Shown here: piece by piece, positions 3 through 2,098 of the stretch
How the letters are laid out: every line of letters starts with the position of its first letter
Position numbering within the stretch: the first letter of the stretch is position 1
Assembly (NCBI GenBank): GCA_002457305.1
Contig: NTKG01000003.1
Location: 1-51,875 of the forward strand
Length of the DNA: 51,875 nucleotides
DNA from: Bacteroidetes bacterium MED-G21
Lineage (GTDB): Bacteria > Bacteroidota > Bacteroidia > Flavobacteriales > UBA7430
Direction: 5' to 3'
Notes under the pieces: model-generated
The model's database searches: none
What the model saw: only the letters and a program-made list of their open reading frames with translations
Told to the model about the DNA's origin: nothing
Program-made: the position numbers and the translations under genes

Positions 3-2045
3 CTTACATTATTTGTTAGCAACGGAGATGTAATTTTTGATTCAAATGGGACCCCATACACTGTTTCTGGTTCACAATCTGAATCGGGCGGATCACTCAC
101 AAGAATAGCATTTACATCATCGGTTCAGGGTGTATTTACAAATGGTAATTCCTATACCTCAAATATCGCATCGTGTGCTATTGAGGGTTGTACAGAGTCT
201 ACTGCTCAAAACTACATGTCTGATGCAAATACGGATGACGGATCTTGTGTTGTTTTTGGGTGTATGGACGAAAGCGCAAGTAATTTTAATTCAATAGCCA
301 ATAATGAAGATGATTCTTGTTTATACCCTGGTTGTACTGACCCTAATTATTTAGAATATGATGAAAACGCAAATACCGATGATGGCTCATGTTCTTGCGT
401 AAGCTCTGTAGAAATTAGCGTAACTACAACTTATGAAGAACCATTTGAGGCTGTCGTATCTGTCGTTGGAGACCATAACCTCTATTCTTCTGGTATTACT
501 GGTGATGATTTGATGGCTATCGCAAATTATAATTATGAGTGGGAGGAAGGTCAATATTGTTTTAATTACGGAGATCCAATGATGTGTGATGAGTTCGCAA
601 ACATTTTGAATTCCGAGATTTCTTTTGGTATTACTGGTGATGATTTGATGGCTATCGCAAATTATACTTATGAGTGGGAGGAAGGTCAATATTGTTTTAA
701 TTACGGAGATCCAATGATGTGTTATGAGTTCGCAAACATTTTGAATTCCGAGATTTCTTTTGGTGGTTCTAATTTTGAATGGTCTAATGATGAAGGTGTA
801 TTATCTACTTCAGAAGAATTTATTCTCAGCACTCCAGGAGAATATACTTTATCTCTCTCTCAAAATGGATGTGAGACACTAAATCAAAACTTTGTTGTAA
901 TAAGTGGTGAAGTAGTTTCAGGTTGTACAAATTCTACTGCAATAAATTATAATGAAGAAGCTAATTCAGATGATGGTTCTTGTATCATCGAGGGATGTAC
1001 TGATTCCATTGCATTAAACTATAATCCTTCCGCAAACCAAAATGATAATTTATGTCAATATATACTTGGGTGTACAGATAGTACCGCATATAATTTTGAC
1101 GCTGTGGCAACTCAAGATGACGGGTCTTGTGTATCGATTATTTTTGGATGTACTGATAGTACTGCTTTTAACTTTGATTCTCAAGCAAATACTGATGACG
1201 GAGCTTGTTTACCAAAAATATTTGGCTGCACTGACCAAAGTGCCTCTAACTTCAACTCTATTGCAAATACTGATGATGGCTTATGCATCCCTTATGTTCA
1301 ACTTCCTGAAGGCTGGAGTATGTTTGGGTATACATGCTTAGAGTCACTAGATGTAGTGGATGCCTTTTCTGAGATATCTGCTAGTATAGAAATTGTAAAA
1401 GATGAATGGGGGCTAGCCTACCTTCCAGCTTGGGGCTTTAGCGCATTTGATAATTTAGAATTTGGTGAGGGATACCAAATTAAAATGATAGAGAATGTTA
1501 CAGATTTTGAATTTTGTACTACAATCGCTGGAGGTGCATCTCAGAATGAATTGGATGCTGCTTATGCAGAAGGTGCAGCCTCGGTAATACCTGAAGATGG
1601 AATCAGTCAATCTGATGTAGAAGATGCTTATGCAGATGGTGTTGCATCAGTTGAAATTCCTGAATTTGAAAGATTTATTGGTGATTATTACCAAGGTGGT
1701 TATATATTGCAAATCAACGAAGATGGCACAGGTTTGGTAGTTGACATACAAGATTTAGGAGTATTTGCTTGGTATATTGCTATTGAAGAAGCTGAAAGTG
1801 CTACCTCCCAAGGCTACGACGATTGGTATCTTCCAAGTAAAGAAGAATTAGAGTTAATGTACAACACTATAGGTCAAAACGGACCGCAAGGTAATAGAGG
1901 GGTTTTTGAAAATGATTTTTATTGGTCTTCCTCGCAGTATTATGACAATAATTTCGGTGCGTGGGGCGTAGATTTCTCTGGTGGTGGTGCGGGAGGTGAC
2001 GTTATTCACAATAGTTACAGGGTTCGTGTTATTCGCGCTTTTTAA
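3..2045 (+). CDS. Cys-rich repeat (GCTD...DDGSC) surface protein with C-terminal DUF1566/Lcl-type C-type-lectin-fold domain; 5'-truncated by the window edge
   Basis: The frame of ORF 216..2045 is open back to position 3 (LTLFVSNG...IEGCTESTAQNY-MSDANT). Eight GC[TM][DEN]xxxxNY/FxxxAxxDDGxC-type repeats. C-terminus GYDDWYLPSKEEL...YWSSS...AWGVDF...RVRVIRAF is typical of DUF1566. Confidence 0.85.
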   Translation, partial: LTLFVSNGDVIFDSNGTPYTVSGSQSESGGSLTRIAFTSSVQGVFTNGNSYTSNIASCAIEGCTESTAQNYMSDANTDDGSCVVFGCMDESASNFNSIANNEDDSCLYPGCTDPNYLEYDENANTDDGSCSCVSSVEISVTTTYEEPFEAVVSVVGDHNLYSSGITGDDLMAIANYNYEWEEGQYCFNYGDPMMCDEFANILNSEISFGITGDDLMAIANYTYEWEEGQYCFNYGDPMMCYEFANILNSEISFGGSNFEWSNDEGVLSTSEEFILSTPGEYTLSLSQNGCETLNQNFVVISGEVVSGCTNSTAINYNEEANSDDGSCIIEGCTDSIALNYNPSANQNDNLCQYILGCTDSTAYNFDAVATQDDGSCVSIIFGCTDSTAFNFDSQANTDDGACLPKIFGCTDQSASNFNSIANTDDGLCIPYVQLPEGWSMFGYTCLESLDVVDAFSEISASIEIVKDEWGLAYLPAWGFSAFDNLEFGEGYQIKMIENVTDFEFCTTIAGGASQNELDAAYAEGAASVIPEDGISQSDVEDAYADGVASVEIPEFERFIGDYYQGGYILQINEDGTGLVVDIQDLGVFAWYIAIEEAESATSQGYDDWYLPSKEELELMYNTIGQNGPQGNRGVFENDFYWSSSQYYDNNFGAWGVDFSGGGAGGDVIHNSYRVRVIRAF
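186..392 (+). repeat. Three tandem ~24-aa GCTD-type Cys repeats
   Basis: GCTESTAQNYMSDANTDDGSC / GCMDESASNFNSIANNEDDSC / GCTDPNYLEYDENANTDDGSC. Confidence 0.9.
492..761 (+). repeat. In-frame 135-bp direct tandem duplication (2 copies, 2 mismatches)
   Basis: 492-626 vs 627-761 are identical except A532/C667 and G588/T723; encodes GITGDDLMAIANY[N/T]YEWEEGQYCFNYGDPMMC[D/Y]EFANILNSEISF twice. Confidence 0.97.
921..1286 (+). repeat. Five tandem GCTD-type Cys repeats
   Basis: GCTNSTAINYNEEANSDDGSC through GCTDQSASNFNSIANTDDGLC. Confidence 0.9.
1920..2045 (+). other. Candidate DGR variable region (VR)
   Basis: YWSSS...AW.V.F...VR.IRAF scaffold; 22 of the 27 codons at 1938-2018 end in a pyrimidine, as expected for codons derived from AAY. 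Confidence 0.55.
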
Positions 2046-2066: not shown

Positions 2067-2098
2067 AAAAAAGCCACTCTAAAAGGGTGGCTTCTTTT
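2067..2098 (+). terminator. Intrinsic terminator after the surface-protein gene
   Basis: AAGCCACTCT-AAA-AGGGTGGCTT stem (one G:U) followed by CTTTT, with an A-tract before it. Confidence 0.8.

Follow-up and report, generated by a model that had tools for sequence, protein, structure and literature searches.

A variable region probably written by a diversity-generating retroelement, and now apparently rarely or no longer rewritten, ends a predicted surface-protein gene of Bacteroidetes bacterium MED-G21

Does the last part of a predicted surface-protein gene in Bacteroidetes bacterium MED-G21 (GCA_002457305.1, here G000) belong to a diversity-generating retroelement (DGR), and is this copy still being diversified? 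The gene lies at positions 3..2045 of the stretch analysed, hereafter the window, which is 51,875 nucleotides (nt) long and constitutes the entire contig C23 of this metagenome-assembled genome (MAG). In a DGR, an AAY-rich template repeat (TR) is transcribed, a reverse transcriptase (RT) copies it with misincorporation opposite adenines, and the resulting complementary DNA replaces a variable region (VR) between conserved flanks. An earlier reading, made from the letters alone (the sequence-only reading), had proposed that 1920-2045 is a DGR target with no RT or template in view. Our analysis points, with a probability of about 0.6, to a VR of the DUF1566/C-type-lectin class that was written by a DGR, forms the tip of a secreted Cys-module surface protein and is no longer, or only rarely, rewritten. 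Thus the proposal was right in kind, as family flanks and scaffold and the TR and RT of a relative (G010) indicate, while ongoing diversification of this copy was not supported, its sequence being identical in all 3 protein records that cover it.

The segment consists of three parts:

1920..1934, forward strand: VR 5' conserved flank TAT TGG TCT TCC TCG, encoding YWSSS (TATTGGTCTTCCTCG)
1935..2018, forward strand: variable core of 28 codons, gapless to the family template from GCGTGG (1959) on
2019..2045, forward strand: VR 3' conserved flank AGG GTT CGT GTT ATT CGC GCT TTT TAA, encoding RVRVIRAF and the stop (AGGGTTCGTGTTATTCGCGCTTTTTAA)

The VR occupies the last 42 codons of the gene, inside an Lcl_C/DUF1566 domain, and the C-terminal end of the protein reads YWSSS...AW.V.F...RVRVIRAF. 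Relatives were taken from 17 genomes of a marine Flavobacteriales-like family, spanning 7 genera, and from metagenome contigs, a scan of which with the last 241 residues of the protein returned 79 loci. Homologous proteins bear the names 'Flavobacteriales' and 'Crocinitomicaceae'. Both 1920-1934 and 2019-2045 match, base for base, the flanks of dozens of DUF1566/Lcl_C C-termini, and the rest of the window domain has only ~66% protein identity to the loci L010, L034, L037 and L067. The 20-mer 2019-2038, with at most 2 mismatches, has 27 occurrences, spread over 8 of the 17 family genomes and 5 of the 7 genera; its reversed control gave 0.

Among the loci examined, 77 distinct VR-type ends were recognized, and the clearest view of their variation comes from four of them. 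L010 (genome G013), L034, L037 and L067 are identical over ~480 nt upstream and ~75 nt downstream and differ solely in the ~80 nt between TCTTCCTCG and AGGGTTCG. Between L010 and L037, 0 differences occur in 200 nt upstream and 28 in the 100 nt of the VR, 24 of them at codon positions 1-2; L034 and L067 likewise show 0 differences in 200 nt upstream and 24 in the 100-nt VR, with 23/24 at codon positions 1-2. The common scaffold can be written as GCG TGG NNC GTC NNT TTC NNT NNT GGT NNC NCG NNC NNC NNC NNT AAG NNC NNT NCA NNC AGG GTT CG. Among the 33 sequences conforming to it, variable columns number 37, of which 19 are at codon position 1, 17 at position 2 and 1 at position 3; all four bases occur, and A is the commonest at 28 of these columns. 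The six codons 5' of GCGTGG, which played no role in the selection of these sequences, have third positions conserved at 91-100% and positions 1-2 at 39-82%. Judged from the sequences, this pattern is what adenine mutagenesis of an AAY-rich template would be expected to produce; neither ordinary divergence nor recombination among paralogs nor chimeric assembly would give it.

Paralogs with the same 3' sequence, which the sequence-only reading had predicted, exist also in G000 itself. One of them, L002 (C18:19981-20170, reverse strand), has 0/42 scaffold mismatches and retains a downstream element described below. The end of contig C18 at 20332 cuts this paralog gene just 5' of the domain, as would be expected of an assembly interrupted by repeats. 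G000 holds 4 DUF1566 ends, and the only DNA relatives of the window VR in it are coding paralogs on C18, C28 and C40. Within the family, 13 of 76 VR-like ends lie on internal domains without a stop codon. One genome, G004 (1.6 Mb, 94% complete), carries the 3' flank at 9 places and the scaffold (at most 3 mismatches) at 7, on four or five contigs and several in tandem on short contigs (C177, C134, C83 and C170; loci L128, L132, L134, L136-L139, L141, L146 and L149-L153). Some family members are damaged. L130 (G015:C89) and L133 (G014:C34) are truncated VR 3' ends with the downstream element, preceded by stop-containing non-coding sequence, and look like remnants of deleted targets. Single-base deletions break the frame inside the VRs of L119, L126 and L131 (G008), which could be pseudogenes or assembly errors.

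A template and an RT were found in this lineage. Matches to RVT_1 occur in 2 of the 17 family genomes, G007 and G010. The RT of G010, on the 2,143-nt contig C222, carries GLPIGNLTSQ and YVDDF, motifs that we take to mark DGR RTs. The same contig bears a TR at nt 11-130, which reads TGG TCT TCC TCG GAG AAC AAT AAT AAC AAC GCG TGG AAC GTC AAC TTC AAT AAT GGC AAC ACG AAC AAC AAC AAT AAG AAC AAT and onwards. The last 12 bases of the window 5' flank (TGGTCTTCCTCG) are identical to this TR. The contig starts at the TR, which is followed by a 287-residue open reading frame (ORF; L030, 187-1050) and then by the RT. The ORF has no Pfam match at E <= 0.01; placed where an accessory gene is expected, it may encode an unrecognised accessory protein. 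A search of the 17 family genomes with the scaffold and flank pattern returned VR-like ends only and no AAY-rich copy; the G010 TR escaped it because of 4 mismatches to the pattern, and was found by reading the contig. An AAY-rich template beside a DGR-type RT, of the kind that the sequence-only reading told us to look for, is present in G010, of the same family, and was not found in the G000 assembly. DGR-type RTs like that of G010 are rare in the order, occurring in 7 of 401 genomes sampled.

Comparison with the G010 TR, over 54 nt with 25 A sites and 29 non-A sites, shows where the VRs have changed. In the 32 of 77 VR ends that have at most 4 non-A mismatches, the pooled counts are 377/800 changed A sites and 80/928 changed non-A sites. 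The paralog on C18 is changed at 9/25 A sites and 2/29 non-A sites, and the window VR at 19/25 and 7/29, respectively. Exactly two non-A mismatches are found in 21 VR ends, mostly at the same two third-codon positions, which suggests that their own unseen TR is slightly unlike that of G010.

Other candidate RTs and templates were rejected. One RT of G007, in L032 (G007:C28, 6199-16415), is by eye not a DGR RT, having QGSPTSP and YADD motifs and no TR/VR repeat; the second RVT_1 match of this genome resembles, again by eye, a group II intron maturase. The L032 RT sits between two WYL-like regulator genes and several large ORFs with no assigned function, and resembles a defence island. An inferred 30-nt template motif has exact matches in 6 genome records (Campylobacteraceae, Sulfurovum, Bacteroidales, two Bacteroidaceae and Berkelbacteria) and 3 viral contigs. 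By sequence these nine are template-like repeats (YWSST..NNAWNVNFNNGNTNNNNK..VRCVR), and all have other 3' flanks, so that none was accepted as the TR of the VR family. In one of them, L161, the motif is followed by an ATG-started reading frame that, as a guess, encodes an RT. The occurrence of the motif in other taxa indicates that the scaffold is a common template type for DUF1566-class targets. No viral contig matched a 27-nt template motif or the family 3' flank.

The window copy itself is less well kept than its paralog on C18. It has two extra codons 5' of GCGTGG relative to the G010 TR, and departs from the family scaffold at 8 of the 42 specified positions. In three cases a Gly codon (GGT, GGA and GGT) stands in place of the NNC of the scaffold. 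Since the Gly codons of this genome are mostly GGT (0.43) and GGA (0.34), with GGC at 0.14, these departures are to genome-preferred codons, which suggests synonymous drift since the last rewriting.

The copy is also invariant as far as it has been sampled. The 90% cluster of the window protein has 4 members, and the VR is identical in all 3 that cover it, one of which differs by a 45-residue repeat. Contigs of other sequencing runs agree: 1845-2047 in X2 and 1547-1951 in X4 have 0 differences to the window, and in X5 1792-1955 has 2 and 1974-2137 has 0. No near-identical VR variant occurs among 78 database hits of 132-422 residues. These data are consensus contigs and protein records, perhaps from shared samples or campaigns, in which rare variants are dropped. 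At the window locus, then, the segment varies no more than the rest of the gene, which the sequence-only reading had named as evidence against a DGR target; in the VR family it varies far more. Two apparent leads on diversity were set aside. The stops of the X4 and X5 contigs at 1951 and 1955, the resumption at 1974 and the low depth in the 1915-2001 bin are not readable as hypervariability at depths of 2.5-5. The P0109 cluster, intended as a positive control for VR diversity in a 90% cluster, proved to represent another DUF1566 paralog, whose near-constant end does not follow the scaffold.

A further difference lies downstream. Most family VRs are followed by a conserved non-coding element, TATTTACC-type repeats and then a small GC hairpin. 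The window lacks this element, and an ordinary terminator stands at that place (2071-2093). In a comparison of 76 VR ends, in which clean means at most 3 non-A scaffold mismatches, the following counts were obtained:

stop codon and element: 53 ends, 30 clean
stop codon, no element: 10 ends, 0 clean (including the window, with 6 mismatches)
internal, no element: 12 ends, 3 clean
internal, with element: 1 end, 1 clean

For stop-adjacent ends with versus without the element, Fisher's exact test gives P 0.00096, the sequences being related and not independent. A perfect hairpin of a 5-bp stem and a 3-nt loop occurs in 23 of 51 tails, compared with 33 of 10,200 shuffled tails; by the criterion used, the other 28 tails are without one. 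The stems are ACCGC/GCGGT in 17 tails, TCCCC/GGGGA in 4 and GCCGC/GCGGC in 2, so that pairing is kept. The fold of the downstream hairpin is not thermodynamically unusual (z 0.09), and the hairpin may be no more than a terminator.

The rest of the gene supports the surface-protein part of the reading. The genome is 1.40 Mb in 66 contigs, 72.6% complete, with 34% G+C. The remaining features are as follows:

3..2045, forward strand: surface-protein gene, an ORF whose 5' end is open at the contig start
186..392, forward strand: three 21-residue Cys modules GC[TM]x...DDxxC, the first stalk block (regular expression on the translation)
492..761, forward strand: 135-nt (45-residue) tandem duplication, the copies differing at 2 places
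921..1286, forward strand: five more 21-residue Cys modules (regular expression on the translation)
1320..1650, forward strand: middle domain, boundaries approximate, no Pfam match
1767..2036, forward strand: Lcl_C/DUF1566 domain, C-type-lectin-like (Pfam PF07603, residues 589-678, E 1e-11)
2071..2093, forward strand: intrinsic terminator hairpin and T-run, with a 10-pair stem (-10.2 kcal/mol for the stretch, z -3.8)

From its sequence, the product is predicted to be a modular surface protein that is secreted. P0122, a full-length record of this protein (687 residues, a member of the 90% cluster), has 52 more N-terminal residues, whose start resembles a signal peptide by eye, no prediction tool having been used. 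The Cys-repeat stalk and DUF1566 domain of the sequence-only reading are both there. The stalk comprises eight modules in total, of the form GC[TM]x-x12-DDxxC, with no Pfam family at E <= 0.01, and the Lcl_C score of 45.5 bits passes the curated gathering threshold of 34.9. Relatives have the same Cys module 5' of their VR-bearing domains, 'GCTGPDHCNYNSLANTDDGSC' in L010 and L034 being an example. P0122 carries a single copy of the 45-residue repeat, so that either the copy number is variable or one assembly collapsed it. The middle domain (PEGWSMFGYTCLESLDVVDAF...EGYQIKMIE) is also present on many metagenome contigs, often 5' of DUF1566, and residues 1-70 of the query window:1320-2042 match many places in all 17 family genomes searched, G000 included.

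How, then, should the window copy be read? Its segment is homologous to VRs with demonstrable DGR-like variation (at codon positions 1-2 and A-derived), with a TR and an RT in the lineage. The window VR would once have been written by the DGR of the family and would then have left the cycle, and the paralog on C18 would be the well-kept VR of G000. The window copy is probably no longer diversified, as is inferred from its non-adenine drift, its difference in length, the loss of the downstream element and its identity wherever sampled.

Several observations weigh against this reading. As no cognate TR was found, the DGR descent of the window VR rests on flank and scaffold homology. An ungapped scan of both strands of G000, with any mismatch allowed at candidate A positions, gave no TR partner for it, the best non-self candidate having at least 25 non-A mismatches in 120 nt. 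Among ~180 loci there was no length-matching TR, and the best non-self sequence had 17/87 non-A mismatches. A Pfam search of the G000 assembly gave no RVT_1 match, an absence to be read against its completeness, and the best tblastn match of the G010 RT in it has an E value of 2.0; just as the sequence-only reading had stated for what it saw, no RT or template was seen in the window, nor in the rest of this assembly. In G001 (71% complete), the only genome of the same genus among those searched, no TR or RT was found either. The evidence that the sequence-only reading had said would refute it, the lack of a template-like repeat and RT in the genome and its close relatives, is thus seen in G000 and G001 and not in G010. 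G004 has no RVT_1 match despite its 7-9 VRs and 94% completeness, for which it is assumed that repeats break assemblies and the RT is lost in binning. The G010 assembly has no VR for its own TR, its template belongs to another genus, and the template of the VRs of other genera, which differs at about two bases, has never been seen. The scaffold departures of the window may stem from another TR variant and not from decay, and consensus data leave room for low-level diversification of its VR.

The codon endings add to this side of the balance. The sequence-only reading had counted 22 T/C-ending codons among the 27 at 1938-2018; the count is correct, and its weight as evidence for a DGR is not, being set by the amino-acid composition. 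In the remainder of the gene 406 of 653 codons (62%) end in T/C. Among 654 sliding windows of 27 codons, 14 have at least 22 such endings, those outside the segment starting at 450-459 and 1215-1239. From the amino acids, 20.5 T/C endings are expected with the codon usage of the gene (P = 0.29) and 20.2 with that of the genome (P = 0.25). The count is unsurprising because Y, D, N, F and H force T/C endings and GGT is the favoured Gly codon. The claimed excess of G/C-ending codons is real but weak, with 16 of 41 in 1920-2042 where 9.3 or 10.9 would be expected (P = 0.009 or 0.044, without correction) and 10 in the 27-codon segment against 6.4 or 7.2 (P = 0.065 or 0.145).

The alternative that survives best, although we consider it unlikely, is an active remote target, for which the unrecovered 27% of the genome, or an unbinned element, would hold a length-matched TR variant and an RT that still rewrite 1935-2018 in trans. 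Both window flanks are intact and identical in DNA to those of clean VRs, 19 of the 25 template-A positions are substituted, and the MAG is 72.6% complete. DGR parts are scattered by assembly in relatives, the TR and RT of G010 lying on a 2.1-kb contig without a VR and the VRs of G004 being without an RT. TRs of the same length architecture occur, for example L162, and remote DGR targets are documented in the part of the survey by Wu et al. drawn on here (2018, PMC5758913). Against continued rewriting stand the identity of the VR in 3/3 records and its near-identity in contigs of three other runs. Variant alleles are missing from the protein database, the non-A departures resemble synonymous drift, and the window lacks the downstream element that 53 of 63 stop-adjacent VR ends possess.

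Far less probable, and already disfavoured, is an ordinary DUF1566 domain with no DGR in its past, in which a loop rich in N, D, Y, G and S would give the T/C endings and protein-level conservation of YWSSS and RVRVIRAF would give the flanks. The codon-ending count is in line with the amino-acid sequence (P 0.25-0.29), G000 yielded no TR or RT, and the motifs YWSS and VR.VR are general in the Pfam family and are seen in the P0109 cluster as well. Protein-level conservation does not account for flanks that are identical even at synonymous sites (15 + 27 nt exact) across genera when protein identity is ~66% elsewhere. Nor would an ordinary loop be expected to match the family scaffold, gapless, at 34 of 42 specified positions, or to be enriched in G/C-ending codons as a foreign template would make it. 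What a non-scaffold end looks like is seen in the P0109-type paralogs, which end YWSSTPTSNN...KARFVRAF.

Slimmest of all are the chances that recombination or gene conversion between DUF1566 paralogs, or chimeric assembly of metagenomes, produced the family variation in place of reverse transcription. The 12-40 matches to window:1320-2042 (middle and DUF1566 domains) per family genome, the mosaic upstream parts of L010, L034, L037 and L067 and the one-codon length classes among loci with identical flanks would all suit such an origin. Shuffling of paralogs cannot, however, yield near-invariant third positions with four bases at positions 1-2 and A the commonest, nor the excess of A-site over non-A-site substitutions relative to a real TR.

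A VR written by a DGR and since left alone, as we prefer to read the window copy, may belong to a wider system. Tentatively, and with doubt prevailing, one trans-acting DGR could serve many dispersed DUF1566 genes in streamlined marine Flavobacteriales, with the 287-residue protein as an accessory factor unrelated to known families; copies that lose the downstream element would fossilise, the window being such a fossil and the copy on C18 a live target. If so, hypervariable binding tips would undergo a birth-and-death process that binned genomes systematically hide.

In an abundant small-genome marine lineage, DGR-type variable tips on modular surface proteins form a large family that spans genera. 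Different assemblies hold the TR and RT on the one hand and the VRs on the other, so that surveys requiring an RT beside the VR would miss most of the system. In addition, non-adenine departures from the template allow the VRs to be ordered from clean to drifted, which offers a way to separate live from fossil targets by sequence alone. No prior report of DGRs in marine Flavobacteriales was found in the literature searched, although the supplements of DGR surveys, in which the family may appear, were outside its scope. The mechanism itself is known, as DUF1566-class, remote and multiple DGR targets are already in print in the consulted part of one survey (PMC5758913).

The comparison with known systems is drawn to the portions of two papers used here. 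Targets with DUF1566, DUF823 or Fib_succ_major domains form category 'd' with CLec2 VRs, an example being LdtA of Legionella, and about half of such targets have additional adhesion or surface domains (Wu et al., 2018, Nucleic Acids Res 46:11, PMC5758913). Unlike these, as far as they are described there, the window copy has no cognate TR or RT found and is apparently fixed, its host is a small-genome marine Flavobacteriales-like lineage, and in the one cassette seen (G010) a 287-residue ORF without a Pfam match stands between TR and RT. Like them, the window has a C-terminal VR in a DUF1566 domain, on a surface protein with appended Cys-rich modules, and its VR family shows an AAY-rich template and A-specific substitutions.

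In phage DGRs, the initiation of mutagenic homing (IMH) element is accompanied by a hairpin or cruciform with stems of 7-10 bp and 4-nt GRNA loops, 4-34 bp from the stop codon (Guo et al., 2011, PLoS Genet 7:e1002414, PMC3240598). The hairpins of the family described here differ from those in the part of that paper used, having stems of 5 bp and loops of 3 nt (GCA, GAA, GTA or ACA); they are weaker, and the window is without the element. Similar to the phage element, a conserved GC-rich inverted repeat lies 3' of most family VRs, ~28-37 nt from the stop.

Multiple and remote targets are exemplified by Treponema, with seven non-adjacent targets, and by Stenotrophomonas, with eight in tandem (PMC5758913). 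As against those systems in the sections cited, no genome of the present family holds both TR and VRs, so that one shared TR is not demonstrable, and some VR-like ends are internal, without a stop codon (13/76). What is shared with the DGRs of Treponema and Stenotrophomonas, as they appear in the same source, is the occurrence within one genome of several dispersed VRs built on one scaffold, at 7 places by scaffold and 9 by 3' flank in G004.

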